Assembly (NCBI GenBank): GCA_041650935.1
Contig: JBAZKH010000001.1
Location: 640,911-704,910 of the forward strand
From: Candidatus Omnitrophota bacterium
GTDB taxonomy: Bacteria > Omnitrophota > Gorgyraeia > 2-01-FULL-45-10
Length of the DNA stretch: 64,000 bases
Direction of reading: 5' to 3'
In this document: in pieces, positions 15,464-63,523 of the stretch
How the letters are laid out: each line of letters starts with the position of its first letter
Numbering within the stretch: the first letter of the stretch is position 1
Notes under the pieces: generated by a model
What the model was told of the DNA's origin: nothing
Databases searched by the model: none
The model's input: only the letters and a program-made list of their open reading frames with translations
Position numbers and translations under genes: made by a program

Positions 15464-16117
15464 TCAGTGCGGCAGATAGTATGCCGGATTCTGCGGTTCA
15501 CCGTCCCTGCGTATCTCGAAATGGAGCATCGGCGTCCTTGCCCGCCCCGTCCTGCCTACCTTTGCTATAACCGTATTCTGCGCGACCTGTTCGCCGACCT
15601 TGACAAGTATATCCGAATTATATGAATATACCGTTTGATAGTTGTCGCCGTGGTCGAGAATTACCGTCTTACCGAAACCTTTAAGGAACTGATCGCAATA
15701 GACAACCTTGCCGGATCGGGCGGCGCGGACACCCGCGCCATCCGCCGCCTTTATATCGATGCCTTTATTCAGCACATTTTCTGTCATGGCCCCATACGGA
15801 ACGGTCAGGGCGCCTCTTACCGGCCATATGAAGAGCTCGCCGGGAACATTCCGGCTTGCTTCCGCCTCGGGCAGGGCACCTGAACGCGGGATGAGGAGCG
15901 CCTGTCCGTTTTCAATAACACCGTTCGTGTAGAGAATCGGGTTCGCTTTTATAAGGCTCTGCAGATGCACCCCGTACCTCCTGGAGATGCTCCAAAGGGT
16001 ATCGCCGTGTCTTACCGTGTGGTATAAAGCGCCCGGCACCTTCCGCGTTTCTACCGGCGTCTCCCGCTTTGGAACCGTTGCGCATCCGGAGAGAAATGCC
16101 AGTAACAAAATTGTCAA
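15464..16117 (-). CDS. LysM + M23 family peptidoglycan endopeptidase (lipoprotein)
   Basis: LysM segment HTVRHGDTLWSISRRYG and M23 motifs HGDNYQTVYSY ... HFEIR. The longest ORF (to 16231) runs through the tRNA-Gly gene, so the start is placed at a TTG giving MTILLLAFLSGC (lipobox). The exact start is uncertain. Confidence 0.8.
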   Translation of the reverse strand: MTILLLAFLSGCATVPKRETPVETRKVPGALYHTVRHGDTLWSISRRYGVHLQSLIKANPILYTNGVIENGQALLIPRSGALPEAEASRNVPGELFIWPVRGALTVPYGAMTENVLNKGIDIKAADGAGVRAARSGKVVYCDQFLKGFGKTVILDHGDNYQTVYSYNSDILVKVGEQVAQNTVIAKVGRTGRARTPMLHFEIRRDGEPQNPAYYLPH

Positions 16118-16146
16118 TAGTCTAACTGCTGACGGGCGCAGCAGAA

Positions 16147-16221
16147 TGGAGCGGGTGAAGGGAGTCGAACCCTCGTATCCAGCTTGGGAAGCTGGAACAC
16201 TAGCCGTTGTGTTACACCCGC
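16147..16221 (-). tRNA. tRNA-Gly (anticodon CCC)
   Basis: Minus-strand GCGGGTGTAACACAACGGCTAGTGTTCCAGCTTCCCAAGCTGGATACGAGGGTTCGACTCCCTTCACCCGCTCCA. Cloverleaf with a 7-bp acceptor stem, anticodon loop TTCCCAA, T-arm GGTTCGACTCC, and encoded CCA. Confidence 0.9.
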
Positions 16222-16245
16222 AATTTGCCATTGTCTTGATCCCGC

Positions 16246-17157: not shown

Positions 17158-17349
17158 AAATTTTTCGTATCAGTCGAATGTGATGTGTCGATGTGGTTCG
17201 CTGCCATAAAAAATTTTAACGCCTTAGCTCACTACATCGCCACGTCACATTTTCACTATGAACCGTAATAACTTCCTCGCTCCTCCGGTAACTATTTCCA
17301 CCCCGGGGTGGAAATATCTTTTCCCCGCTTTCGCAAGAACGAAAAATTT
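17158..17349 (+). repeat. MITE-like intergenic repeat, copy A (TIRs AAATTTTTCG/CGAAAAATTT; ~30-bp imperfect inverted arms; distal palindrome TTCCACCCCGGGGTGGAA)
   Basis: Direct sequence comparison with the copies at ~20132-20300 and ~42793-42934. A and C share about 80% identity over the arms, including identical arm mismatches. Confidence 0.6.
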
Positions 17350-18632
17350 TACCTTTTTAAACACTTTTCGGAAATCTTGATCGAACAATATTCGCCGCAC
17401 ATCGTACAGACGTCTTTGGTGCCGGGTTTCGAGCTCGCGCGATACTTTTTCGGCCGCTGTATGTCTATGGCAAGCGCAAATTGCCGCTCCCAGTTCCGCT
17501 GTCTCCGCGCCCGCGATATTGCGATATCCCGGTCGATGGAGCCCTTTACACCTTTCGCAATATCGGCCGCGTGGGCCGCGATCTTCGATGCGATAACACC
17601 TTCCCGCACATCCTCGAGGGTCGGCAGTCTCAGGTGTTCCGACGGAGTTACATAACACAGGAAGTCGGCGCCTTTACTGGCCGCTATGGCGCCTCCGATC
17701 GCTGCCGTAATATGGTCGTAACCCGGGGCTATATCTGTCACGAGCGGACCCAGGACATAGAAAGGCGCGCCGTTACAAACGGACTTCTCGAGAATAACAT
17801 TCGCCTCGATCTGGTCGATCGGCACGTGCCCCGGACCTTCGATCATGACCTGTACCCCGCGGCGCAAAGCGCTCTTCTGCAATTCACCAAGGGTTAAAAG
17901 TTCCAGGATCTGCGGGGAGTCGGTCGCGTCCGCGATAGCGCCCGGCCTCAGGCCGTCGCCCAGGCTTAGCGTAACATCGTGCCGCTTTGCGATATCGATA
18001 ACTTCGTCAAAATGGTCGTAAAACGGATTCTCTCTATTGTTTTCGAGCATCCACTCGGCCAAAAAGGCTCCGCCCCGGCTCACGATGTCGAGTATGCGCG
18101 GATACTTACTCAAAGCTTTAAGCGCCTGTTTCGTGACACCGGCGTGTATGGTAAAAAAATCGACGCCCTCCCCGGCCTGGCGTTCGAGAACCTTCAGCAT
18201 GTAACTTACAGGTATATCCTTGATACGGCCGTATCTCTTTAGAGCCGTTATCACGATCTCGTAAATGGGCACGGTCCCGACCGGCACGCCGGACTTAGCG
18301 AGTATCTTTTTACGGGTCGCGTTTATCATCCGTCCCGTAGAAAGATCCATTACCGTATCGGCGCCAAGGTCTATAGCAGCCTTTGTCTTCATCAATTCGA
18401 TGGAAATATCGGACGAATCCCTGGAAGTGCCGATGTTCGCATTTATCTTGGTCCGCAAGCCTTTGCCGATGCCGCATGGCCTGGAGACGCTGCGGTTCCT
18501 GTTTTTCGGGACCACGATAACCCCGCCGGAAAGACCCTTGCGCACCATCTCCGCGCTTACATTCTCGTCTTTAGCTATCCGCGCGACTTCGGGTGAGATC
18601 TTACCCGCGCGCGCAATATCAATCTGCGTCAT
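17349..18632 (-). CDS. thiC: phosphomethylpyrimidine synthase
   Basis: 427 aa. C-terminal CxxCxxxxC radical-SAM-type motif CTMCGEYCSIK and ThiC family conservation throughout. Confidence 0.92.
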   Translation of the reverse strand: MTQIDIARAGKISPEVARIAKDENVSAEMVRKGLSGGVIVVPKNRNRSVSRPCGIGKGLRTKINANIGTSRDSSDISIELMKTKAAIDLGADTVMDLSTGRMINATRKKILAKSGVPVGTVPIYEIVITALKRYGRIKDIPVSYMLKVLERQAGEGVDFFTIHAGVTKQALKALSKYPRILDIVSRGGAFLAEWMLENNRENPFYDHFDEVIDIAKRHDVTLSLGDGLRPGAIADATDSPQILELLTLGELQKSALRRGVQVMIEGPGHVPIDQIEANVILEKSVCNGAPFYVLGPLVTDIAPGYDHITAAIGGAIAASKGADFLCYVTPSEHLRLPTLEDVREGVIASKIAAHAADIAKGVKGSIDRDIAISRARRQRNWERQFALAIDIQRPKKYRASSKPGTKDVCTMCGEYCSIKISEKCLKR

Positions 18633-20131: not shown

Positions 20132-20300
20132 AAATTTTTCGACAACTCATGAAACACAATGTGGCGATGTGGTGAGTAGGGCGTAAAAATTTCGAGGCAG
20201 CGTACGAGAAATTTTTCCGAGCGCAATTTTCACATGGCTGAAAATTGCGCGTCCCTACGAACCACATTGACGCATTGTGTTCTACTGATACGAAAAATTT
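20132..20300 (-). repeat. MITE-like intergenic repeat, copy B (inverted relative to A and C; carries a ~65-bp internal insertion with a perfect 12-bp palindrome GCGCAATTTTCA/TGAAAATTGCGC)
   Basis: The reverse complement aligns with A and C: TTTTTCGTATCAGTAGAACACAATGCGTCAATGTGGTTCGTAGGGACGCGC ... GCCCTACTCACCACATCGCCACATTGTG. AAATTTTTCG-type TIRs at both ends. Confidence 0.6.
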
Positions 20301-42792: not shown

Positions 42793-42934
42793 AAAATTTT
42801 TCGTACCGGTCGAATATGATGTGTCAATGTGGTTCACAGGGACGCGCCCTGTTCACACATTGCCACATCATATTTTTATCATTCCACCCCGAGGTGGAAA
42901 TGTATGCTAATCTATTACGTTATCGAAAAAAGTT
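42793..42934 (+). repeat. MITE-like intergenic repeat, copy C
   Basis: AAAATTTTTCGTACCGGTCGAATATGATGTGTCAATGTGGTTCACAGGG ... CCCTGTTCACACATTGCCACATCATAT ... TTCCACCCCGAGGTGGAA ... CGAAAAAAGTT. Same architecture and orientation as copy A. Confidence 0.6.
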
Positions 42935-42937
42935 GCC

Positions 42938-43513
42938 TTAAAATATCTCTACTCCTATTTTACGGAATATTTTTGCCAGCTTAGCAAGCGGCAAACCTAC
43001 TACATTATAGAAACATCCTTCTATGCGGTCAATAAATATACTCCCCGGCCCCCGGACATCGAAAGAGCCGGCCTTGTCGAACGGCGATATCTTTTTGAAA
43101 TAGCGCTTTATCTGCGCTTCGCTCAAGGGATACATATAGACTTTCGTCTTTTCGTAATCGGTATAAACTTTTTTCTTATCGACATCTATTACGGCCAGTC
43201 CCGTATATACCCACTGGGGTTTACGCGACAGGACCCTCAGCGCTTTATACGCGTCGTTAATGGTCCGGGGTTTGCCTATTATCGATTTACCGACGAGCAC
43301 GACCGTATCGGCCCCTATGACAACGCCGGAATCCAGCCTCGCGGCAACTCCGCGCGCTTTCCGGAGCGCATTTTTGATTACGAAGTCGCTGCACCGGCCT
43401 TTGAGCCTGCTATCCTCCCTGACACGCGAATCGGCTACGCTGAATTCCAGGCCCACCTGCTTTAAGAGGTCCTGTCTTGCCCGCGATTTTGACGCAAGTA
43501 TTATCTTACGCAT
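42938..43513 (-). CDS. maf: Maf-family nucleoside triphosphate pyrophosphatase
   Basis: ILASKSRARQDLL N-terminus and the Maf fold. Confidence 0.85.
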   Translation of the reverse strand: MRKIILASKSRARQDLLKQVGLEFSVADSRVREDSRLKGRCSDFVIKNALRKARGVAARLDSGVVIGADTVVLVGKSIIGKPRTINDAYKALRVLSRKPQWVYTGLAVIDVDKKKVYTDYEKTKVYMYPLSEAQIKRYFKKISPFDKAGSFDVRGPGSIFIDRIEGCFYNVVGLPLAKLAKIFRKIGVEIF

Positions 43514-49469: not shown

Positions 49470-49640
49470 CACCTTTTTAAGAGCGTGATCGACCGGGCTA
49501 TATAGTGAATAGTGTATAGTGGATAGCGAATAGTAAGTCTGGTTGACTTTTAGGCCTATGCACTCTCCGCTAGCCGCTATTCACTAAAATTACCGTTGCG
49601 CGACAGCGCCTGGGATCTCACCAGGACTTCCTTCACTTGC
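49470..49640 (-). promoter_or_regulatory. possible second (degenerate) cobalamin riboswitch aptamer preceding the receptor gene
   Basis: Minus strand: GAAGGAAGTCCTGGTGAGATCCCAGGCGCTGTCGCGCAACGGTAA resembles the Cbl core (AAGGGAAnCCGGTGAAAATCCGG...CCCGCCACTGTAA). Followed by a B12-box-like AGTCAACCAGACTTAC and alternative pairings around the AGGAGG SD. Confidence 0.4.
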
Positions 49641-49661: not shown

Positions 49662-50336
49662 TTATGCGTATTTTTTAATATCCAAAAACCAATGCTTCCA
49701 GTACCCTTCTTTTAAGACCGGTTCGGCATCCAATATCCTGACCGGCTCCTTAAATATCGGGCCGTCTACTACCAGAGTATGGAACTCCCCGTTCTCCCCG
49801 CAGGGGCAGACTCCTTTCGCTTTGAATTCAGCCGCCAGATCCATATCCAGGAACCTGCCGACATACTCCTTCCCGAGTTTATCGGCCTGACAGCTCACTA
49901 TTATGGTCTTAAAGCCAAGGGCGGTAAATTCACCGACCAGGCTCATCGGATCGCGCTGCCACAGAGGCTCGACAGGCGAGACCCCCATATCGCCGCAGAC
50001 CCTTTCGACCCAATTTACCATGTCGGCAAGATAGATGTCGCCAAAGACCACGGTTTTGAAACCTTTAGCCCTAAAACCGGATACAGCCTCCCGGAACTCT
50101 TCCTCGTATTTCTTCATATCGGCAGTCACTTCTTTCTGGACTAAAGGGATCCCGATCTTTTGAGCCTGCAGAGAAAGGAGTTCCGACTCGATGCCGTGAA
50201 AACATCCGCGCCGGGATTCCCGCGAAATAAAAGTCAGGAGATACTTAACGTCGTATCCGTCGTTCATCGCTTTGTAGCAGGCGAGACAGCTGTCCTTGCC
50301 GCCGCTCCAGGAAGATATAGCCGCTACCCTATCCAT
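49662..50336 (-). CDS. PP-loop ATP pyrophosphatase of the DUF71 / Dph6-MJ0570 family
   Basis: 224 aa. SGGKDS PP-loop at the N-terminus. Start overlaps the cobS stop by 13 nt. Confidence 0.75.
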   Translation of the reverse strand: MDRVAAISSWSGGKDSCLACYKAMNDGYDVKYLLTFISRESRRGCFHGIESELLSLQAQKIGIPLVQKEVTADMKKYEEEFREAVSGFRAKGFKTVVFGDIYLADMVNWVERVCGDMGVSPVEPLWQRDPMSLVGEFTALGFKTIIVSCQADKLGKEYVGRFLDMDLAAEFKAKGVCPCGENGEFHTLVVDGPIFKEPVRILDAEPVLKEGYWKHWFLDIKKYA

Positions 50337-51076
50337 AAAACCGTCCTTTCCAGGATCGCAATACCGAACAGGACGGCTACTTCGGTTATTTCGCTTACCG
50401 CACCGATCGTGTCTCCGGTAATGCCCCCTATTTTTCTTTTTATTAATGCTCCCGCCATGTATGCGAATAAAACCGTCATTCCTAAAAGAACCGTCCCCGC
50501 TGTCCCGGCTATCAAAAAGACCACCGCCAGCGCCGAGAGCATTGCCGCCGCCGCTATACTTTTCTTTTTTCCGTCGATAAAGGCCCTGGCCTTGCCCTCA
50601 ACCCTTGCGTATGGGAACGCATATAATGAAACAACCATCGACGACCTGCCCAGCACACACATAAGGACGAGCGCCGTCTCTTTGGCCGTGCCTATTGCCG
50701 AAATAAATGCCACTTTAAGCATCACGACTGAGATGAGCGCAAGTACGCCCATTACGCCCGCATGCGGATCGCGCATGATATTCAGCATACCTGCCCTCTC
50801 CTTTCCGCTGAAGAGCGCGTCGCAGGTATCCGATAACCCGTCGAGATGCATGCCTCCGGTCAATAGTACGAGCAGGACAACTATAATTACGCTAGATGTA
50901 AAAGTCCCGAATTGGACGGCGGTCAATAAAAGACTCGCCGCGGCCAGCACCATCCCCAGCAGCAGCCCTACGACAGGAAAAAAAGCCGCGGCGCCGGCAA
51001 GGTCCTTTCCCGTCATGCGCTTTATCCGGATGGGGATTACCGTAAGAAACTGCGCCGCCGCCAGGAGGCTCTTCAT
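50324..51076 (-). CDS. cobS: adenosylcobinamide-GDP ribazoletransferase (cobalamin synthase)
   Basis: 250-aa polytopic membrane protein; CobS family conservation at the N-terminus (AAQFLTVIP). Confidence 0.88.
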   Translation of the reverse strand: MKSLLAAAQFLTVIPIRIKRMTGKDLAGAAAFFPVVGLLLGMVLAAASLLLTAVQFGTFTSSVIIVVLLVLLTGGMHLDGLSDTCDALFSGKERAGMLNIMRDPHAGVMGVLALISVVMLKVAFISAIGTAKETALVLMCVLGRSSMVVSLYAFPYARVEGKARAFIDGKKKSIAAAAMLSALAVVFLIAGTAGTVLLGMTVLFAYMAGALIKRKIGGITGDTIGAVSEITEVAVLFGIAILERTVLWIG

Positions 51077-51080
51077 ATCG

Positions 51081-52139
51081 TCACGAAACCTTTTTAGAAA
51101 CGCTTGCGCTTTCGAATGTCGCCATCTCGGAGAGTATCTTTGCGGAGGCGTCTATAAGGCAAAGCGCGAGCGCCGAGCCCGTGCCCTCGCCCAGCCTAAG
51201 GTCGAGATCCAATACAGGTTTAAGGCCCAGCTCCGCCAGGATAAATTTATGCCCGCTCTCGACCGAACAATGGCTCGCTATCATGTAATCTTTTACCGTC
51301 GGATGCAGTTTGTACGCTACAAGCGCGGCCGCGCCCGAAATAAAACCGTCGATAACCACCGGCACCCTCCTGGCAGATGCCGCAAGTATTATGCCCGCCA
51401 GGCCGCCTATTTCAAACCCGCCAACCTTCATCAGGACATCGATAGCGTCTTCAGGGTCGGGGCGATTTACATCCAAAGCCTTCTCGACGATCCTTATCTT
51501 ACCGGCAAGCGCCTTATCATCGAGACCGGCGCCTCTGCCCGTAACTTCTTTGACGGGCCTGCCGGTAAAGAGAGCCGTTATCGCGCTTGCGGCGGTAGTG
51601 TTGCCTATCCCCATCTCGCCCGTGCAGACTATATCTATACCTTTTTTGAATTCCGACTCAAATATATCTATCCCCGACCCTATGGCCTTTAGCGCTTCCG
51701 CGCGCGTCATGGAAGGACCCTTGACCATATTCCGCGTCCCGTAATTTATCTTCCTTATAATAAGGCCCGCGCCGGCCTTGATATCCTCGGCAACCCCCAT
51801 ATCGACCACCACGACCCTGGCGCCCGCGTGCCTTGCCAGGACGTTGATAGCCGCCCCGCCCCGTAAAAAATTATAGACCATCTGGGCGGTCACCGCTTTT
51901 GGATACGGGCTCACCCCCTCGTCGGTAACGCCGTGATCGCCGGCCATCGTGAAGATGACCTTATTTGCCAGTGGAGGCGTTTCGCTCCCCGTCATCCCCG
52001 TAATGCTTTTGATCAATTCCTCCAGCCTCCCAAGACTCCCCAGCGGCTTTGTAAGATTATCGAGCCTGCTTTGCGTCTTTGCCATTACGGCGCGATCGAG
52101 CGCTCCGATCGATCTCCTGACGCGATCCAGCTTCTCCAT
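51081..52139 (-). CDS. cobT: nicotinate-nucleotide--dimethylbenzimidazole phosphoribosyltransferase
   Basis: GDHGV, the GEMGIGNTT motif, and overall CobT length. Confidence 0.9.
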   Translation of the reverse strand: MEKLDRVRRSIGALDRAVMAKTQSRLDNLTKPLGSLGRLEELIKSITGMTGSETPPLANKVIFTMAGDHGVTDEGVSPYPKAVTAQMVYNFLRGGAAINVLARHAGARVVVVDMGVAEDIKAGAGLIIRKINYGTRNMVKGPSMTRAEALKAIGSGIDIFESEFKKGIDIVCTGEMGIGNTTAASAITALFTGRPVKEVTGRGAGLDDKALAGKIRIVEKALDVNRPDPEDAIDVLMKVGGFEIGGLAGIILAASARRVPVVIDGFISGAAALVAYKLHPTVKDYMIASHCSVESGHKFILAELGLKPVLDLDLRLGEGTGSALALCLIDASAKILSEMATFESASVSKKVS

Positions 52140-52655
52140 CTACTTTATCCTCAACGGTATACCGGATATCATAAAAACCATCCGGTCCGATCTTTCCGCC
52201 GCGATCTTATTTATCCGGCCGGCGATATCCCGGAATTTCCGGCCCAATTTTGTATCCGGAACTATCCCGAGCCCAACCTCATTCGATACTATAGCGGAAC
52301 AGCCCTTTCGCTTTTTAAGGGCCGCGATCGCAGAGATCGTCTCTTTTTCAATGATCTCCGGAGACTCTTTTGCGTGCATCATATTCGATACAAAAAGAGT
52401 AAGACAGTCTATGATGATGAAGTCATGCCCGGCGGGAAGGGTCCCGGCCAGCCGCGCCAGACGCCGCGGCTCTTCGTAAGTTACCCAGTTCTTCGGCCTC
52501 TCGCTCCTGTGCCTCTTTATCCGCGCGGCCATTTCGTCATCGAGCGCTTCGCAGGTCGCGATGAAAGCCGGGTTCTTCGCTTTAGCGGCAAGCGTAAGGG
52601 CGTAGCTGCTCTTTCCGCTTCTTGCGCCGCCGACTATGAACGTTATCTTTCCCAT
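52140..52655 (-). CDS. cobU: adenosylcobinamide kinase / adenosylcobinamide-phosphate guanylyltransferase
   Basis: P-loop GGARSGKSS at the N-terminus of a 171-aa protein. Confidence 0.88.
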   Translation of the reverse strand: MGKITFIVGGARSGKSSYALTLAAKAKNPAFIATCEALDDEMAARIKRHRSERPKNWVTYEEPRRLARLAGTLPAGHDFIIIDCLTLFVSNMMHAKESPEIIEKETISAIAALKKRKGCSAIVSNEVGLGIVPDTKLGRKFRDIAGRINKIAAERSDRMVFMISGIPLRIK

Positions 52656-53250
52656 CGTTTAGATGAGCCGTATCATTTAACAATACGGCCTTAGCCTTTC
52701 CTCTTATGAATTCTATTACCGTAAGGCTCGTGTGCCCGGGAACGAAGTCCCGGCGCTTGAGCGCGCCCAGCATCTCGCCGGCAATGATATTTATCACGCC
52801 GCCATGGGTCACTATCGCGACCGCGTCATCCTCTTTGCGGCGGGTTATCTTTTTAAAGGCCTTAAGTACCCTTTTCTTGAATGCCGAAGGAGTTTCGCCG
52901 CCGGGTATCTTGACACCGAACGGGTCGGCCAGCCATTTAATATGGAGCCGCGGGTACCGGGCCATGATCTCGTCATACGTAAGCCCTTCGAAGATACCGA
53001 AGCATATCTCTTTTAAGCCGGGCTCGGACTTGAGGGGCCTGTCGCCGAATATTATCCGCGCAGAACCGATCGCCCGTTTCCTGTCGCTTGTGTAAACAGC
53101 GCCTATATCTACGTCCTTAAGGCGGCGGGCGAGTTTTTTCGCCTGCGCCCGGCCTTTCGCGTTAAGGTCCGTATCGCTATGCCCCTGGTACCTGCCGAGA
53201 CGGTTCCAGTCCGTCTCCCCGTGACGTATAAGTATTATTTTTTTAGCCAT
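52582..53250 (-). CDS. cobC: alpha-ribazole-5'-phosphate phosphatase (histidine phosphatase family)
   Basis: LIRHGETDWN catalytic RHG motif. Start set at MAKKIILIRHGE. 74-nt overlap with cobU. Confidence 0.75.
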   Translation of the reverse strand: MAKKIILIRHGETDWNRLGRYQGHSDTDLNAKGRAQAKKLARRLKDVDIGAVYTSDRKRAIGSARIIFGDRPLKSEPGLKEICFGIFEGLTYDEIMARYPRLHIKWLADPFGVKIPGGETPSAFKKRVLKAFKKITRRKEDDAVAIVTHGGVINIIAGEMLGALKRRDFVPGHTSLTVIEFIRGKAKAVLLNDTAHLNDGKDNVHSRRRKKRKEQLRPYACR

Positions 53251-53261
53251 AAATGACCCTA

Positions 53262-53580
53262 AGGATAAATAAAAATCCCCACACCTTCGCTTCACGAAAG
53301 TATGGGGCAAGTTCCCTGTTCTACTAAAACCCACACATGACGATGCTCGCACGGCATCGCACTGCTATCATATGGGCAGGTCTTCTGACTACCCCGGCCT
53401 TATCGGCTGCCTTCCCATTCCGAAAAATGCGGAAAAGTGGCATGATTCACCGACAGGCTCCTCTTAATAACGCAAGAGGCCGGGGCTACAGCGGCGGGAC
53501 CGTTTCCGTTTTGCGCAAACTTTGCCAAGCAGCGCTTGCTCGGAATTCCCTTTTAAGCCCTTTCGGGCGCCCATATAGCT
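53262..53580 (-). promoter_or_regulatory. cobalamin (AdoCbl) riboswitch with intrinsic terminator controlling cobC-cobU-cobT-cobS and downstream genes
   Basis: Minus strand contains AAAAGGGAA, CGGAAACGGTCCCGCCGCTGTAGCC (CCCGCCACTGT core), GGGAAGGC and the B12 box AGTCAGAAGACCTGCC (plus coords 53374-53390). Then a hairpin CCCCATAC...GTGTGGGG plus U-run ATTTTTATTT (plus coords 53266-53307) directly 5' of the cobC start. Confidence 0.8.
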
Positions 53581-53656
53581 TTATCTGTCAAACAGCCAGA
53601 GATAGGGAGATTTTACCCTAAAAAATTTATATGTCAAGTAATATCGTAATCATGAA

Positions 53657-56092: not shown

Positions 56093-59000
56093 TTATGTGT
56101 GATAAATATCTACCGTCAACCTGCTCGTACGGTACTCCTGGGCAGGCGCGCCGCTAAAATCTGCCGCCAAATAGACATAAATAGCATTACCTACCGCGGT
56201 CGTCCTGGGCCAATAACCCGGAGGCGGATATGCCAGTGGAACCGGCGCGCCAAGCTCGCCGTTACTATTGATCAAAGTCCGGTAATTACGCACATACTGG
56301 TCCTTCGACCAATCAGGGTCGCTCTTATCCATCACAAAGGCAAATTCCGCCCTGTCTCCGTCATTGACCGTAGTATCGAATTCCGGGGTTTCGGCCCCAT
56401 TATAATAACCCTTCCGGGCATCCCAGACTTGCCATATCATCGGAACTCTATAGCCCGAATTCGACACTCCTATTAATCCGTTTGCCTGGGCGCCTGTTCC
56501 GGAATATTTTGGATATGCATTATCCGCCTTATTGTCGGTATATATTTGTATACCCCATGTCCCGGAACTCTTATAATCTATCTGCAGATACTGGTTTGCA
56601 AGAACTTTTGGCTGGGAGGCTGTGGCCTGCCCGAAATCTACTCCTGTGGCCTGGATACCGGACGCGCCGTCCAGTATCGCGATATCCAATTTGTCACCGG
56701 TGAGATCGACGGGGTCAAATTCCGCTTCGTCAAAATAGAGAGTGATCGGCTGTAGCGTATCCGCGGAAACAATATCGACTGCCGCTATGCTCGAAAGATT
56801 CACCGCGGCGGGAAAATCACTCAATAAGACGTGCATCTCCTGCCATACTCCGCCGGTTGCGACCGTAAACGTCATTTGCGCTTCCGTATTGCCGGAATCC
56901 CGCAGGCGAAGCGTAAATTTTTCTCCGCCATTCTCTCCCATAACCCTGAAAGATATCATGGTCGCGTCTGATATATTTGAGTTATTAAGAGCTATCGTAT
57001 TCTTCTGGCCCGGCTGTAAGATTGCTTTGCGCACTTTTCCGGCCGTGCCGTCGTATCTCAACGCGTCGACAAAGACCGTATCTCCTATGGTCAAACCGCC
57101 GTTATCAAGAGTAAGACCTCCGAATACGTTCGGCTCATGTCCGTCGCCGTAATCCAACCGGTATGTGCCCGTAATTATTTTGATCTCGGCGGAATTCGCA
57201 GATTCGGTATTATCGCTCTTTACGGACCTGACCACATAATAATACGGCGTACCATTACTAAGACCGCTGTCTGAATAGGTTACCGCGGGACCATCTACAG
57301 AGCCCGCCATTATATAAGGCCCTCCCTGCGCGCCTGAGCGATATATGTTATATTTTGCCGCGCCGTAAACGGTATTCCACCTCAGATGCGTTTTGTCTTT
57401 ACCAAAGGATGCTCCGATAACTTCGGCCGGCGGTTTAAGGACCGGCGGTATGGCCTGCGTAAGACCAAAACTATCCCACCGTATCCACCCGCTTGGGGCA
57501 GTTGTGGTAATGCCGGGATGATAGAGCGTTATTACATTCCATCCTTCATTGACATAGAATCCTTGCGTGACTACCTGGTCGCCTTCCGAAACCTGACCGT
57601 TGAAGATTAATTCGGAATTATTGACGAATATAACCAGGTTGTTCGACAATTGGTTCTGGGTATCCAAGACCTTAAAAGTGATCGTAGCGTAATCCGTAGT
57701 TTCGTTATAGAAGATTATATTACTAAAATTTTCGGTATCCTTGTCCAGCTCTTGAGAAAACGTATTTATATCGGCCCCTACATAATATGTAGAATCGAGA
57801 CGGTATTTGTTGCCAAAGAACGACTTTGGAGTAGAAGATTCATTACGCGCCATAACCCATGTATCATGAACGGATGGACTCGTTATTTCTATGTTCTGCC
57901 ATGCGAACCATTTGGCGCCGGCGGTACCGCTCTGCCACTGGAAGGCAAGCGTGTTAACCCCGGTCTTTAAGGCCGCGTTGTCTATAGCTATATATTGTAT
58001 AAGCTGCGGGTCGATACTGGAGCTATCATAAGTGAATGTTATCGACCCACCGTCGATATCGTTCAACTTTATACCGAGCGTAACCGTATGACTCCCGAGC
58101 GCTTTATTCACAAATTGGTGTATTGTAAGTAGATACGCCTTGTTTTCTACGGAATCCAGGTTAAACTGTACGGTCTGCGAAGGATTTTCCGCGCTCACCT
58201 GCCCCATATGAAAATTCGAATTACTATCCGGGTCATCAACCGTAATAGCACATACATTGTCGGCAGCGAATCCTAATTTCTGTATTATGGTATCCTTCAA
58301 GGTCTTGCCCGGCTCAAGCTCGAAACCTCCGAAATTATTCCATATAAGACCGGAATCGCGGTTCTCCGCCATAATAAGCGATATGCCCATATCGATAGCG
58401 CAATAGAACGACGCTATCGGGAACGGCTCCTCATTCAGGCTACTGCCCATCCTGAACGAATTTACAAAACCGTAATCTCCCCATATCTGATAACCATAAA
58501 CGTCATACAGCTCCTTCATCTTCTTAAGGGCGCGCTGGCACTCATCCGGCAGCATGGCTATCGATCCTCCGGCCGCCGAAGGATGGACCGTACCATCGGC
58601 TCCACGCACGTCTCCCGACGGAATCGCAACGCCTGCCGGCGGGGCACCGTAAACATTGTAACTGAATCCACTGCTGTACCCGCTTGTCAATCCCCAGAGA
58701 TCTTCCTCACCCGCATAATTCGCAATATTATCGTTGCAGAACTGCTTATTTGCCTTTGTCGCCTCAACAGAGTTCTGCCACCAGTCAATACCTTCCTTAT
58801 CATATAGCGGGAGACCTGAGGCATCTTTAAAATTAAAGAAGGCCTGCGCATACTGATAAACGAAGAGCGGGCCGAACCACGACTTTACCATAGGGTTACT
58901 GTCCGCATTGTAAGTGCCAAGCTCGCGCCTGAATGCGTAGAATGTTTCGGCGGGTATCGCGTGATCGGAATCCGGAGCCGCCGCCGCAAGGATGTAGATC

Positions 59001-62000
59001 AGCATACATTCGCTTGTGTAATCCCAATGGTCGAAGAATTGATTCGCGCCGGTCCGGTCGGGGTCCCATGCGTGATACAGCTGGTTATAATACGGATTTG
59101 CCACTTCGTGGCCGTCCTGGACGGTTTTGTTTTGATCCAGGAAAGCTTTCCAGTTGATATTTTTGTATATCAGCAGGGCCTTGTCTTTCAAATCTCCGCC
59201 GAAATATTCACCGGCAGTCAGGACGCCGGCAACGAGTATTGCGGTATCGACCGTCGAAACTTCCGAGCCGGCCCATCTTTCGCCGGTTTCGATATTGACG
59301 TAATGATAGAATAAACCGTCCCTTCCCCATGTTGAAAATGTAGACGGATCAGCCGAGTTCTGATTACCCTGTATCTCGAGCAGTTTATCGAATATCAGCG
59401 TAACCCTTGCTTTCAGTTTGTCCGGGTCCGCCTCCTGCCAATCCGGATTTGTCCCGTCGCCGTAATGTTCGGCCGCAACGCACATTGCCGCAAGACCGAA
59501 TCCGGTAGCCGCCATGCTCGCCATATTGTAATGCGTGTCCCATGTCGCGTTACGGTTGGCAGGATCGACCGGCAATCTGTCACGCACAAATCCCGTGGCC
59601 GGATTATCGGTCTCATGCCAGAAATATTTGAATGAGGTTATGAGTATCTGCTCCTCGATAGTCAGACTCGCTGTAAAGAGAGCCGTTACCGACTTATTAG
59701 CGTTCATTGTTATGGTAGCGGGGTTTGTAGAGCCGGTTAGGTCGCCTGACCAATTGGAGAACGAGTATCCGCCAGCCGGCGCAGCTGTCAGGGTAACTAC
59801 TTCACCAGCAGTATAAGTGGTCTTATCTGGTGACTTCGCTATGGAACCGTTAGAGGCCGTAAGAGTGAGAGTGTACGCAGGTACTTCAGTGAAGCTCGCG
59901 GCTATCGTGTGGTTTGTAGTTACATTAGTGAATGTGTAAGTGCCGCCCGAGAGCGTAACAGGCGCGCCGTCCACTAATACCTGGTCGATATTGTAACCTG
60001 TGTCGGCAGTAACCGTGAATGTCTGGCTTGCGCCATTGGCTACGCTTACAGCGCCTGAAGGCGATATGTCACCGCCGGTACCCGCTGTAGCGTTGATCGT
60101 AAGAGCCGGCAGTACTGTAAACAGAGCCGTTACCGACTTATTAGCGTTCATTGTTATGGTAGCGGGGTTTGTAGAGCCGGTTAGGTCGCCTGACCAATTG
60201 GAGAACGAGTATCCGCCAGCCGGCGCAGCTGTCAGGGTAACTACTTCACCAGCAGTATAAGTGGTCTTATCTGGTGACTTCGCTATGGAACCGTTAGAGG
60301 CCGTAAGAGTGAGAGTGTACGCAGGCGTCGAACTCTCCGTAACCGTCACATGCCATTCGAACGGTGTGGAGACTGCCGGGGTGCCGTTATCGGTCAGTAC
60401 TACCTTTATATAGTACTCGCCCTCCGGTAGAGCCAATGCGCCGCTCTGCGCGTTCTGTAGTTCCGCAAGCTCTGTATACGAACCTCCTGCCGGCTTCTTG
60501 TACCACTTGAAACTTACCGATTGCCCGCTGTCGGGATCATGATACTGTTTTACTTTAAACTCACAACTTTTAACCTCGCCCGGATGGATAGTTATGTTAA
60601 CATCCGCCGCGGCAGGGGTGATCTCGTCGATAACCGGAGCGTTATTACCGGTAACCGTCACATGCCACTCGAACTGCGTAGACATCGCCGGAGTGCCGTT
60701 ATCGGTCAGGACTACCTTTATATAGTGTTCACCCTCCGCGAGAGCCAATAGACCGCTCTGCGCGTTCTGTAGTTCCGTAAGCTCTGTATACAACCCGCCT
60801 GCCGGCTTCTTATACCACTTGAAACTTACCGATTGCCCGCTGTCGGGATCATGATACTGCGTTACTTGGAACGACTGCTGTTTAGTCTCGCCGGCCTTAA
60901 CGTTAATATTGACTTCGGCCGCGGCGGGGGTAAGCGCATCTATGACCGGCGCGTGATTCGCGGCATCGCTGACGACTTCGACCGCCCAGGTAAACGAGGA
61001 AGAATTACCATTACAATCCGTAGCGGTTACGACGATCGTATAGTCGCCCGTGCCGAATATAAGCGAGAGTATGGAAAATTCACTCGGCGTACCGTTTATC
61101 ACTTCCCCGTTCACCGTCCACGTAATCGTTACCGGCGTATCGGGATCTGAAGCCGATGCCATAAATACCGTAGATTCGTTCTTGTGCAATGTTACGGAAG
61201 ATTCGCTGGGAGTTACCGTCAATACGGGAGGCGTACCGCTGACTGTAATCGTTATATCTTCGCTATCCTGCAATGCGCTGGAATTATCCTCCCGCGCGAT
61301 GAAACGGAGATTCTTAACCGTGTCCTCATCGCTTTCGGCAGGAGTCCAGCTGAATACTTTATTATCGAACGCCGCGCCGACGGGTAGGCCTTCGGCTAGA
61401 TAGAGAAGCGGGTCGCCATTAGGATCGGCGGCATTGATATTGAATATAAGTTCTTTCCCCACGCCGATCGTCTTATTTCCTATAGGATCCAGCACGGGCG
61501 GCTTATTTACCGCACTGCTCACCAATATGCGCAGAGCGCTTCCGCCCACTATGATATCCAGCGCGCCGTCGCCGTTAATATCCGCCAGTTGGACATTTTG
61601 GCCTCCGATAAGCGCCGGGGTGCTCCGGTAATCCGGCAGTTTTATAGACGCGTCGATATTTTTGAATGAGCCTGCCTTATCATTCATATAAAGCGATATG
61701 CTGTCCTCTCCAAGCACTACCGCGTCCAGCCGGCCGTCGCCGTTCAGGTCTCCCAGCTTAATGTCTCTGGAATTAAAATCGTTCGCAGGCATCAGGTCGG
61801 CCGTCTTATCCGCGAATGAGCCGTCGCCATTATTCATAAGAAGCAGGTTTTGTGTAAAACATGCCACGACAAGATCTATCTTTCCGTCGCTATTTACATC
61901 GCCCGTATCCAGGACTTCGCTATATTCGCTATCGTCGGGAAGAAGCGCATTCGTAGCATCGGTAAACCCGCCTGAGCCGTTATTTATATAGACACGATTC

Positions 62001-63352
62001 CGTAAATCGCTGGAACCGACGATCTCGTTATTGGTCGTAAGGATATCGAGCCGGCCGTCGCCGTCGACGTCGCAGAATCGTATATCGGAACTGCCGTCGA
62101 TAACAGCGGGCAGGTTAAATTGCGTATCTTGTGAGAATTTGCCGGCACAATCGTTGACGAGGAGGAGGTCCTGCGAGCCATGGACCGCTACCACAATGTC
62201 GAGATAACCGTCGCCGTTTACATCGCCCAGATCGAGAGCGGCCGCGTCCTGTGCCAGAGCCGGAGTGCCGTCGGAGACGTAGGTAAACACGCCTGCGCCG
62301 TTATTCGAAAATAACTTTATAGCCTGGCCCTCGGAGTACGTAAGGAAGAGTTCCGGGAAACCGTCACCGTTAATATCGCCAAGGGCCGCATCGGTAATAA
62401 TAGAAGCGCTATTCTTAATCTCATCCGGCAGTGCCCCGTTGGTAAATCTACCGCTTCCATCGTTAACAAGCAGGTATACCTTCTTCAAAACCGTATCGAC
62501 TACCAGAAGATCCAGGTCCTTGTCGCCGTCTACATCGCCGGTCCTGATTATAGATGAATCGCTTAAACTGATCGCGGAGTCAAGGAGCGCTGTTGTCTGA
62601 TCTACAAAGACCGACCCGGCCGTATCGCCGAGTATATCGAACATCCCCATCTTGCCGCTTACCGTATCCACGCTCACCGTAATATCGGTAAACCCTTCGG
62701 GAAGCCCTTGCGGAACGGCGGCGCAAATCTGGTTAGCCGATACCACCGTTACCGTATCGGACTCGGTATCGCCGAATTTAACCGTATCTTTGGCTGTAGC
62801 GCTGAAACCTGCGCCCTGTATAGTAACGGCAACACCCGGGATAGCGCTATTTGGAGTTACGCCGGTCACGTATACCGGCGCCGGGCTGGACGAACTGCCT
62901 TCAGAACCGGTCCCGCTATCACCATCACCCGGATCATCAGTTGTGGTGGTATCTAACACGCTGCTCAGACCATAGACCACACTATCATCGTCCGAAGAAT
63001 TGGACTTTGAAGGCGCTTCAGGAGTATCGCTGGAGTTTGCTTGCAAAGAAGGGCTGGTAGATACAGTTTTTTCCTGGGGAGTATCCGGGCTATCATAATC
63101 CGATGTGTTGTTATTAGCGGTAGAATTATTCAATGGCGTAAAGTTCTGTAAGGCTGTGCCATTCCTGGATGAAGCAAGGGGAACCGAAATATTTGTCTGC
63201 GAAGATTCTTTGTCCGGCGATTGATACGCTTCCGCTACTAAAGGCGCGGCGGTAGGGGCATGGAGGATTATCTCTTTATCCCGTATCGAGACAAGAGTAA
63301 GGATCGAGATCGCCGCCAATATCCAAAACTTGATCCTTCGCATCGTCCTCAT
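56093..63352 (-). CDS. giant (2419 aa) secreted multidomain surface protein
   Basis: Domains seen: signal peptide; S/T/N-rich linker; IPT/TIG; at least 7 FG-GAP/VCBS repeats (D.DGDG..D); tandem PKD-like domains; 3 InlB-B-repeat-like domains; a six-hairpin glycosidase-like domain; Fn3. Conserved C-terminal tail AIYVYLAADFSGAPAQEYRTSRLTVDIYHT. The likely start is the ATG at 63343 (MRRIKFW), which has a better SD. Confidence 0.8.
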   Translation of the reverse strand: MRTMRRIKFWILAAISILTLVSIRDKEIILHAPTAAPLVAEAYQSPDKESSQTNISVPLASSRNGTALQNFTPLNNSTANNNTSDYDSPDTPQEKTVSTSPSLQANSSDTPEAPSKSNSSDDDSVVYGLSSVLDTTTTDDPGDGDSGTGSEGSSSSPAPVYVTGVTPNSAIPGVAVTIQGAGFSATAKDTVKFGDTESDTVTVVSANQICAAVPQGLPEGFTDITVSVDTVSGKMGMFDILGDTAGSVFVDQTTALLDSAISLSDSSIIRTGDVDGDKDLDLLVVDTVLKKVYLLVNDGSGRFTNGALPDEIKNSASIITDAALGDINGDGFPELFLTYSEGQAIKLFSNNGAGVFTYVSDGTPALAQDAAALDLGDVNGDGYLDIVVAVHGSQDLLLVNDCAGKFSQDTQFNLPAVIDGSSDIRFCDVDGDGRLDILTTNNEIVGSSDLRNRVYINNGSGGFTDATNALLPDDSEYSEVLDTGDVNSDGKIDLVVACFTQNLLLMNNGDGSFADKTADLMPANDFNSRDIKLGDLNGDGRLDAVVLGEDSISLYMNDKAGSFKNIDASIKLPDYRSTPALIGGQNVQLADINGDGALDIIVGGSALRILVSSAVNKPPVLDPIGNKTIGVGKELIFNINAADPNGDPLLYLAEGLPVGAAFDNKVFSWTPAESDEDTVKNLRFIAREDNSSALQDSEDITITVSGTPPVLTVTPSESSVTLHKNESTVFMASASDPDTPVTITWTVNGEVINGTPSEFSILSLIFGTGDYTIVVTATDCNGNSSSFTWAVEVVSDAANHAPVIDALTPAAAEVNINVKAGETKQQSFQVTQYHDPDSGQSVSFKWYKKPAGGLYTELTELQNAQSGLLALAEGEHYIKVVLTDNGTPAMSTQFEWHVTVTGNNAPVIDEITPAAADVNITIHPGEVKSCEFKVKQYHDPDSGQSVSFKWYKKPAGGSYTELAELQNAQSGALALPEGEYYIKVVLTDNGTPAVSTPFEWHVTVTESSTPAYTLTLTASNGSIAKSPDKTTYTAGEVVTLTAAPAGGYSFSNWSGDLTGSTNPATITMNANKSVTALFTVLPALTINATAGTGGDISPSGAVSVANGASQTFTVTADTGYNIDQVLVDGAPVTLSGGTYTFTNVTTNHTIAASFTEVPAYTLTLTASNGSIAKSPDKTTYTAGEVVTLTAAPAGGYSFSNWSGDLTGSTNPATITMNANKSVTALFTASLTIEEQILITSFKYFWHETDNPATGFVRDRLPVDPANRNATWDTHYNMASMAATGFGLAAMCVAAEHYGDGTNPDWQEADPDKLKARVTLIFDKLLEIQGNQNSADPSTFSTWGRDGLFYHYVNIETGERWAGSEVSTVDTAILVAGVLTAGEYFGGDLKDKALLIYKNINWKAFLDQNKTVQDGHEVANPYYNQLYHAWDPDRTGANQFFDHWDYTSECMLIYILAAAAPDSDHAIPAETFYAFRRELGTYNADSNPMVKSWFGPLFVYQYAQAFFNFKDASGLPLYDKEGIDWWQNSVEATKANKQFCNDNIANYAGEEDLWGLTSGYSSGFSYNVYGAPPAGVAIPSGDVRGADGTVHPSAAGGSIAMLPDECQRALKKMKELYDVYGYQIWGDYGFVNSFRMGSSLNEEPFPIASFYCAIDMGISLIMAENRDSGLIWNNFGGFELEPGKTLKDTIIQKLGFAADNVCAITVDDPDSNSNFHMGQVSAENPSQTVQFNLDSVENKAYLLTIHQFVNKALGSHTVTLGIKLNDIDGGSITFTYDSSSIDPQLIQYIAIDNAALKTGVNTLAFQWQSGTAGAKWFAWQNIEITSPSVHDTWVMARNESSTPKSFFGNKYRLDSTYYVGADINTFSQELDKDTENFSNIIFYNETTDYATITFKVLDTQNQLSNNLVIFVNNSELIFNGQVSEGDQVVTQGFYVNEGWNVITLYHPGITTTAPSGWIRWDSFGLTQAIPPVLKPPAEVIGASFGKDKTHLRWNTVYGAAKYNIYRSGAQGGPYIMAGSVDGPAVTYSDSGLSNGTPYYYVVRSVKSDNTESANSAEIKIITGTYRLDYGDGHEPNVFGGLTLDNGGLTIGDTVFVDALRYDGTAGKVRKAILQPGQKNTIALNNSNISDATMISFRVMGENGGEKFTLRLRDSGNTEAQMTFTVATGGVWQEMHVLLSDFPAAVNLSSIAAVDIVSADTLQPITLYFDEAEFDPVDLTGDKLDIAILDGASGIQATGVDFGQATASQPKVLANQYLQIDYKSSGTWGIQIYTDNKADNAYPKYSGTGAQANGLIGVSNSGYRVPMIWQVWDARKGYYNGAETPEFDTTVNDGDRAEFAFVMDKSDPDWSKDQYVRNYRTLINSNGELGAPVPLAYPPPGYWPRTTAVGNAIYVYLAADFSGAPAQEYRTSRLTVDIYHT
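59679..60325. repeat. intragenic tandem duplications in the giant gene
   Basis: 59679-59881 and 60123-60325 are identical over 203 bp (period 444 bp = 148 aa). 60339-60547 and 60651-60859 are about 90% identical (period 312 bp = 104 aa). Confidence 0.8.
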
Positions 63353-63370: not shown

Positions 63371-63441
63371 TAAAAAACCGGACTACCAATCCTGATCGAT
63401 TTGGTAATCCGGCTGCCCAGTACCAATATACCGGTACTGGG
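63371..63441 (-). terminator. tandem stem-loops with a U-tract in the leader of the giant gene (terminator/attenuator-like)
   Basis: Minus strand: GCCCAGUACC-loop-GGUACUGGGC, then CCGGAUUACCAA-AUCGAUCAGGA-UUGGUAGUCCGG followed by UUUUUUAU about 20 nt before the SD/ATG. Confidence 0.4.
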
Positions 63442-63523
63442 CCCGTGATTTTGCGCCCCCGCATTACTGCAGGTTTGCCTTTTTCAGTCAATCATTTCAA
63501 AACTATCTGCCAAGCTCTAGAAC

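Follow-up and report, generated by a model that had tools for sequence, protein, structure and literature searches.

Three related elements lie in the window analysed here (a stretch of 64,000 nt, or 64 kb, from the MAG of an uncultured Candidatus Omnitrophota bacterium), and they represent a family, not catalogued before, of a well-known type of miniature mobile DNA; they are not a gene regulator. The unit is inserted, repeated and non-coding, and it shows insertion polymorphism between genomes. It is probably a mobile, non-autonomous repeat of about 140–200 bp, non-coding and resident in Omnitrophota chromosomes. The more specific description of a non-autonomous MITE/REPIN-like repeat, probably mobilised as a folded single strand and co-transcribed within operons, has about an even chance of being correct. 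Omnitrophota are mostly ultra-small, host-dependent bacteria. Bacterial genomes are shaped by small palindromic repeats, which fragment assemblies, interrupt operons, give rise to rearrangements and can alter how mRNA is processed.

A sequence-only reading of this DNA had described a three-copy repeat family with 10-nt termini, the second copy being inverted, and the sequence indeed reads as it described (Table 1). Copy B has the same termini as A, AAATTTTTCG and CGAAAAATTT, in the inverted orientation, in agreement with its inverted-repeat matches to both A and C. At the left end of copy C, AAAATTTTTCG is read from position 42793, with one extra A, and AAATTTTTCG from 42794, the right end being CGAAAAAAGTT at 42934; these termini differ by one or two changes from those of A and B. 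Repeat finding in the window pairs A with C as a direct repeat (42 nt, 90% identity); B matches each of them as an inverted repeat of 43–67 nt with 79–84% identity. An nhmmer profile built on the left 58 nt matched A, B and C at E = 1e-16 to 1e-17 and detected no further copy in the 64-kb window, where ATGNGTCNATGTGGTTC occurs exactly three times. The density is thus 3 copies per 64 kb in the window, and it is about 1 per 35 kb in the related genome GCA_028699255.1. Full copies measure 141–199 nt, are non-coding and have no conserved ORF.

Table 1. Element copies in the window and their structural features (window positions)
Feature	Positions	Strand	Description
Copy A	17158–17349	+	192 nt, long form; antisense to flanking genes; between ThiC stop (17349–17351) and PfkB start (17145)
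A, left terminal inverted repeat	17158–17167	+	AAATTTTTCG
A, long imperfect hairpin	17176–17252	+	left arm GAATGTGATGTGTCGATGTGGTTCGCT, preceded by tag GTCG; right arm AGCTCACTACATCGCCACGTCACATTT
A, 18-nt perfect palindrome	17296–17313	.	TTCCACCCCGGGGTGGAA; long-form module
A, right terminal inverted repeat	17340–17349	+	CGAAAAATTT
Copy B	20132–20300	-	169 nt; gene sense; between PFK stop (20310) and SIS/gmhA start (20093)
B, long hairpin	20152–20282	-	stem extended by GTAGGG/CCCTAC
Copy C	42794–42934	+	141 nt, long form, short loop; between Maf stop (42938–42940) and PGI start (42770)
C, long hairpin	42812–42875	+	apical CAGGG-ACGCG-CCCTG
C, palindrome	42882–42899	.	TTCCACCCCGAGGTGGAA

Read on its '+' strand, the element starts with the terminus AAATTTTTCG, followed by about 8 nt (TATCAGT), a tag GT(A/C)G, the left arm GAATGTGATGTGTCGATGTGGTTCGC, GGACGC and a loop of 5 to ~95 nt; beyond the loop come ACGCC, the right arm GCTCACCACATCGCCACATCACATT, 10–100 nt and the terminus CGAAAAATTT. 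Across the copies, the inverted termini are 10–13 nt long and the imperfect stem comprises about 27–33 bp. Neither arm is self-complementary: the two are inverted copies of each other and jointly form a single stem. At the foot of the left arm, the tag is GTCG in A and C, GTAG in B and in D, and GCAG in E (D and E being full copies in related genomes, detailed below). Its last G is paired with the right arm; in copy A this base is the G of GAATG.

The palindrome TTCCACCCCG(G/A)GGTGGAA, for which 0.05 occurrences are expected by chance, had been assigned to A and C, and within the window it is indeed confined to these two copies. Where present, this GC-rich module lies between the stem and one terminus, and in A it is terminator-like on the + strand only. 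No relationship is seen between the loops of different copies, each of which contains its own perfect small palindromes. The loop of B (~70 nt) holds a perfect hairpin, GCGCAATTTTCA...TGAAAATTGCGC, together with two terminus-like motifs arranged as an inside-out pair (CGGAAAAATTT ... GAAATTTTTACG). The apical loops of D, E and B (L129:4520-4620, L146:3690-3785 and window 20179-20256, respectively) each contain a long perfect palindrome that differs from one to the next, for example GACCTACGCGGTCGACAT...ATGTCGACCGCGTAGGTC in E, and other small palindromes seem to land or expand preferentially in the apical loop. Both strands of all three window copies fold far better than shuffled sequences (z = -4.4 to -9.1), as expected for a structure that is a palindrome at the DNA level.

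The genes of the window are tightly packed and nearly all lie on the minus strand. According to the Pfam matches, A is found between ThiC and a PfkB-family kinase, B between a phosphofructokinase (PFK) and an SIS/GmhA-type isomerase, and C between Maf and glucose-6-phosphate isomerase (PGI). Every element is a filler between two co-directional genes and ends 0–9 nt from the upstream stop codon; at site A, the third base of the ThiC stop codon, which is on the other strand, is the last base of the right terminus. The downstream start codon follows at 12 nt in the case of A (PfkB), 38 nt for B (SIS/gmhA) and 23 nt for C (PGI), which agrees with the earlier statement that all copies sit within 10–40 nt of the start of a sugar-phosphate gene. 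The accompanying proposal of insertion into AT-rich promoter regions is not borne out, since the sites are junctions of co-directional genes just after stop codons, which measure 3 nt or overlap in relatives. No sigma-70-like promoter was predicted in the elements. A terminator-like arrangement is seen at site B, where the 9 nt leading up to the element pair with the 3' end of PFK and the T-run of the element comes next.

The Pfam scan covered about 59 ORFs of the window, a few of them without any Pfam match, with the four largest ORFs outside; for two of these four, the orthologues in relatives carry the annotations UvrD and glycogen phosphorylase. Among these ~59 ORFs, no domain of a transposase or recombinase, those of the RAYT/HUH type included, was detected. 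This accords with the earlier remark that the window contains no transposase, and the element would thus be non-autonomous. Beside site A, a tRNA-Gly(CCC) gene (window 16147-16221, minus strand) lies directly downstream of PfkB, in the same place as in relatives; the listed ORF 15464-16231 overlaps this tRNA, so that its true gene start must be further in.

Orthologous regions in relatives were found through ThiC and PGI homologues, among others in GCA_028699255.1 (regions L128, with ThiC 78% identical, and L129), GCA_030691985.1 (L125, 82%) and GCA_041643055.1 (L149, PGI 72%). The search for empty sites proposed in the sequence-only reading was informative, each occupied junction being empty in at least one related genome. 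Site A is empty in L128, where ThiC and PfkB overlap as ATGA; site B in both L125 and L128, where the gap between PFK and gmhA is 3 nt; and site C in L149, where Maf and PGI are 11 nt apart. In this compact and streamlined lineage, the family can serve to mark recent changes of the genome, including insertions into gene junctions of 0–3 nt. Other differences were observed around these loci. In L125, four small genes (DUF6485, PspC, DUF5674 and one unknown) are found between ThiC and PfkB (L125:4692-5725), and this junction seems to be a hot spot for gain and loss. The same region has a 680-nt non-coding stretch upstream of PFK (L125:166-847), with several GC-rich inverted repeats and no Rfam match, at a place where the window holds a protein-coding gene. 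The N-terminal extension of P0122, the closest PGI, is unrelated to the element.

The empty sites bear directly on the possibility that the element is a cis-regulatory leader or operator of a sugar-phosphate regulon (heptose kinase PfkB, gmhA, pgi), acting either as an RNA switch or as a palindromic binding site. The position of the three window copies, 12–38 nt upstream of genes for sugar-phosphate enzymes, and the conserved structure would fit such a role. However, orthologous pfkB, gmhA and pgi genes do without the element in relatives, and its orientation is not constant, B being inverted and D and E being inverted relative to C at the same gene. In L129, another gene even separates copy D from pgi. 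A loop, and thus an arm spacing, of 5 to ~95 nt is incompatible with a fixed dimeric operator. No Rfam family reached its gathering score in A–C, D or E: the best scores were 11–36 bits, against gathering scores of 33–110, and they came only from generic hairpin (miRNA precursor) models. The sequence-only reading, which had preferred a mobile element to a cis-regulatory RNA and had named a match to a known ncRNA as an argument to the contrary, is upheld on this point by the empty sites, the variable orientation and the lack of an Rfam family above threshold. The regulon-leader explanation is largely refuted by the empty sites and very improbable. The tie to sugar-phosphate genes suggested earlier is better explained by where insertions are tolerated, as relatives run these genes without the element.

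The Maf–PGI junction provides a more complex picture. Two full copies, D (L129:4474-4670, GCA_028699255.1) and E (L146:3638-3831, contig 505 of GCA_041643075.1), lie directly after the Maf stop codon, in the orientation opposite to that of C. Uncompensated mismatches and an indel are seen in this pair of copies. The termini of D are A.ATTTTTTGAT at both ends, with TTTTTTGAT where A–C have TTTTTCG, and those of E are a diverged form of the D pair, AAATTTTCTGAT / ATCAAAAAATTT (with the diverged pair TTTTCTGAT/ATCAAAAAA): between copies, the termini change in parallel at both ends. Remnants were also found at this junction, with two termini only in L148 (contig 781 of GCA_041643075.1) and two termini plus a few subterminal bases in L130/L131 (GCA_029004355.1). 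Such termini-only remnants look like the result of a deletion of the hairpin. Copy A is closer to D (88% over 49 nt, in the loop and right arm) than to its neighbours in the window, the loci of A and D being different. The 3' end of Maf, GA(A/G)ATTTTTTGA, is native coding sequence, present even at the empty site in L149, and the element terminus closely resembles it (GAAATTTTTTGA). Within the bolder and rather unlikely proposal discussed below, this resemblance would mean that the family may have been born at, or may home to, the Maf 3'-end sequence. Farther down the same region of GCA_028699255.1, 75–160 nt upstream of pgi, the segment L129:5838-5925 shows weak similarity to the right-end module of A and C, with TTTTTCG, GTTCTGCGAAGC and TTTCCACC-loop-GGTGG in this order and in the same orientation as C. 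It may correspond to a second, partial element at Maf–PGI, upstream of which D and a DUF2934 gene would have been inserted.

The persistence of an element at the Maf–PGI junction in several genomes is one of the observations that could point to a function for the host. The element would then be a structural one, an RNA hairpin internal to operons or a DNA site, which would stabilise, process or terminate transcripts, selected at gene junctions and rarely spread by recombination in place of a dedicated transposition system. Every copy follows a stop codon closely, with genes in the same direction on either side, and would be transcribed, the folds are very stable on both strands, pairing in the stem is kept by compensatory changes and the terminator-like pairing with the PFK 3' end at site B could be read in the same way. 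Nevertheless, close relatives express these operons without any element, the junctions being 3 nt wide or overlapping, and the Maf-junction copies decay, D and E being mismatched and those of L130 and L148 reduced to their termini. Orientation varies even at the same junction, and recombination alone does not explain near-identical units at unrelated sites. This host-serving function appears thus improbable, although less so than the regulon leader.

Short-read assemblies give another view of the family. In the sample carrying the genome of the window (SRR8542065), the Logan contig L001 opens precisely with the 30 nt (k-1) at the end of A. Such a boundary is expected of a de Bruijn graph if the same end has another flank, which suggests, indirectly, that at least one more copy exists with the end of A and a different flank. 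Two other contigs end within elements: L127, also from Logan SRR8542065, does so inside both B and A, and L147 (Logan SRR23936503) breaks off within the loop of E. Assemblies of these MAGs appear to be fragmented by the family, whose profile is usable to annotate them and to explain contig breaks.

How the element moves can be approached through the evolution of its stem. Each left arm of copies A–E was aligned by hand with the reverse complement of its own right arm. Of the 27 stem columns, eight contain at least two types of Watson–Crick pair, as illustrated by TGTG in A, TATG in C and CACA in B, each with matching partners. For the count of pairs, the alignment of the five sequences was restricted to the arms, with two indel columns removed and the loop swapped for an artificial GAAA linker. 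In this arms-only alignment (n = 5), 94.5% of the cells are paired and 8 of 22 pairs show a two-sided change, a count which is matched by none of 500 shuffles and falls to 0–2 when the register is slid. With five sequences and an alignment chosen by hand, this covariation lends support but does not settle the matter. Each one-sided change is restricted to a single copy or to the orthologous D and E, the pattern that decay following insertion should leave. The copies form a small natural data set in which to separate selection for the folded form from such decay.

None of the five copies is paired at three of the stem columns (13, 23 and 24). On the '+' strand, the mismatch of column 13 is T·C, and in columns 23–24 TC stands opposite TC; read on the '-' strand, they become a G·A plus a tandem GA/AG. 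The earlier description of stem mismatches common to A and C is correct as far as it goes, but B shares them too. Likewise, the G-U wobbles noted on the top strand stand in part, with three G·U pairs in A and one in C. Their use as a hint that RNA is made from one strand had to be abandoned: the two private mismatches of B wobble on the opposite element strand, so that A and B favour opposite strands, and the events are too few. Neither element strand is consistently the sense or the leading strand.

Two-sided changes of the stem would not arise by neutral decay and must thus have been fixed in lineages that were still multiplying, from which we infer that the folded form is needed for multiplication. 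Taken together, these changes, the invariant mismatches, the GT(A/C)G tag and the lack of a visible target duplication favour movement by a structure-specific single-strand route, to which we would give slightly less than an even chance. The mobilising enzyme would then recognise the folded single strand, and probably not a duplex sequence. It would act in trans, being of the REP/REPIN–RAYT or IS200/IS605 HUH type and encoded elsewhere in the genome. The short gap that separates a stop codon from the following ribosome-binding site would be the only place where copies survive. Since the elements lie inside operons, they would be co-transcribed, which would place long RNA hairpins in the mRNA in either orientation, with a possible side effect on mRNA processing or stability.

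The termini weigh against this single-strand route, since their 10–13 nt co-vary between the two ends, an observation that recognition of duplex ends fits equally. That neither strand is consistently sense or leading counts against it as well. The termini lead to a less probable but still substantial alternative, that of a classical MITE, in which an internally deleted IS would have 10–13 bp termini bound as duplex by a DDE transposase encoded elsewhere, the stem being an extension of these ends. Terminal inverted repeats are indeed clear in every copy and change in parallel at both ends, the boundary of the Logan contig falls exactly at the outer end of the terminus, and the units are small, non-coding and intergenic, with filled and empty sites. 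The outermost part of the terminus, AAATTT, is its own reverse complement, and a 6-bp target duplication hidden there would mimic an outer inverted repeat. However, AAATTT is absent from the empty sites A and B of relatives, and no direct repeat flanks the termini at any of the five full copies, which leaves the classical MITE without an unambiguous target-site duplication. Stem positions 4–7 differ between copies in one genome and are thus not read by a transposase; that they changed on both arms is not explained by recognition of duplex ends. The three mismatches that are invariant in all copies also speak against it, and no parent element is known.

Searches outside the related genomes returned nothing that resembles the element. 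No match was obtained by BLAST in plasmid and phage records. With the pattern ATGNGTCNATGTGGTT (14 specified bases), no element was present among the 120 matches listed in genome contigs (BLAST and nhmmer). In metagenome contigs, AAATTTTTCG-N17-21-GTCNATGTGGTT gave three matches, all by chance and none element-like, two of them inside an aspartokinase-like coding sequence; in viral contigs, the right-arm motif gave chance matches only. A literature search combining Omnitrophota and MITE found no report of such elements.

Two other classes of structured DNA were considered and rejected. For an integron attC site, no RYYYAAC / GTTRRRY core sites were seen by eye at the ends of A–C, there is no array, the neighbours are housekeeping genes that keep their synteny in all relatives, and the scanned ORFs contain no integrase domain. 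For a retron msr/msd, no reverse transcriptase domain was found among the scanned ORFs, and the element is multi-copy.

The window contains other structured features of its own. A c-di-GMP-I-GGC riboswitch (63399-63488, minus strand, 68.8 bits, Rfam) lies 47 nt upstream of an ORF of 2419 aa (56093-63352, minus strand), the L149 orthologue of which has TIG, FG-GAP, PKD and Glycoamylase domains. Taken together, this suggests a giant surface protein under second-messenger control. The giant ORF includes direct repeats at 59671-60872 (211 nt, 100% identity, spacing 444 nt; 222 nt, 88%, spacing 312 nt) and shorter periodic repeats of the GCCGTCGCCGTT-type motif up to about 62550. A cobalamin riboswitch (53358-53589, minus strand, 76.3 bits) is found directly upstream of a His_Phos_1 (CobC-like) gene (52582-53352), which is followed in relatives by CobU, CobT and CobS. 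An inverted repeat at 49503-49586, with 31-nt arms that are 77% complementary and 22 nt apart and with TAGTG/ATAGTG-like short repeats, occupies part of a 340-nt gap before plus-strand genes (49779-51692) that have no Pfam match.

Among known systems, the element has the general features of MITEs: it is small (less than about 500 bp) and non-coding, has terminal inverted repeats and occurs dispersed in several copies, the occupied sites differing between genomes. Bacterial MITEs of 100–200 bp with terminal inverted repeats and a long foldback structure include the Correia elements of Neisseria and the ERIC/IRU sequences of enterobacteria. They are imperfect palindromes found in either orientation in transcribed intergenic regions of operons, where their RNA hairpins can be processed, and their size variants result from internal indels. 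The likeness to our element, which is a comparison by description, concerns size, termini, foldback and operon setting; no sequence similarity was expected or found. In contrast to these families, the element shows no visible TA or other duplication, and it has G·A-type mismatches and a GT(A/C)G tag that are not features of theirs. Its termini are also much shorter than the 26-bp Correia repeats.

In the miniature elements derived from IS200/IS605 (PATEs), the two ends have separate subterminal hairpins and lack terminal inverted repeats. Insertion takes place 3' of a fixed tetra- or pentanucleotide, and there is a strand bias with replication. What our element has in common with them is the lack of a visible terminal duplication, imperfect hairpins with conserved irregularities read on one strand and a mobilisation that would occur in trans. 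No common flank of the kind seen at PATE targets was detected at the sites of A–C, D and E, and unlike PATEs the element shows no replication strand bias (2:1 in the window).

The REP/REPIN family offers the comparison that comes closest to the favoured single-strand route. Its repeats reach high copy numbers in extragenic space and are mobilised by RAYT (TnpA-REP) transposases, Y1 HUH enzymes whose gene is usually flanked by the repeats. REPs with an unpaired GTAG (or CGTC) tag at one end of the palindrome are described, and tagged REPs are reported in 8 phyla, of which the abstract names some (PMC3733652), and REPINs have a hairpin-forming doublet architecture (PMC3116915). Like REPINs, the element is extragenic and non-coding, with two inverted arms, a variable spacer and a hairpin in ssDNA or RNA (PMC3116915), and it has a GT(A/C)G-like tag at one foot of the stem, comparable to the one described for REPs (PMC3733652). 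An imperfect stem with conserved irregularities, the lack of a visible target-site duplication and a location mostly downstream of coding regions, between co-directional genes and in both orientations, complete the likeness. The differences are nevertheless clear. REP hairpins are two in number and 20–40 nt long, whereas the arms of the element are not palindromes and form one stem of 27–33 bp. The element has terminal inverted repeats of 10–13 nt outside the stem, which REPs proper lack, and in three of the five copies its tag departs from GTAG, being GTCG or GCAG. The scanned ORFs of the window include no RAYT gene, and the host phylum is Omnitrophota. A bolder and rather unlikely proposal is that the G·A and GA/AG mismatches, the tag and the compensatory changes are the mark of a REPIN-like single-strand transposition system, built on one long stem capped by inverted termini and active in Omnitrophota. 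Mobilisation would be due to a divergent RAYT or to an enzyme not yet described. If a structure-specific enzyme does stand behind the family, biology of the REP/RAYT type would be extended to a new phylum.
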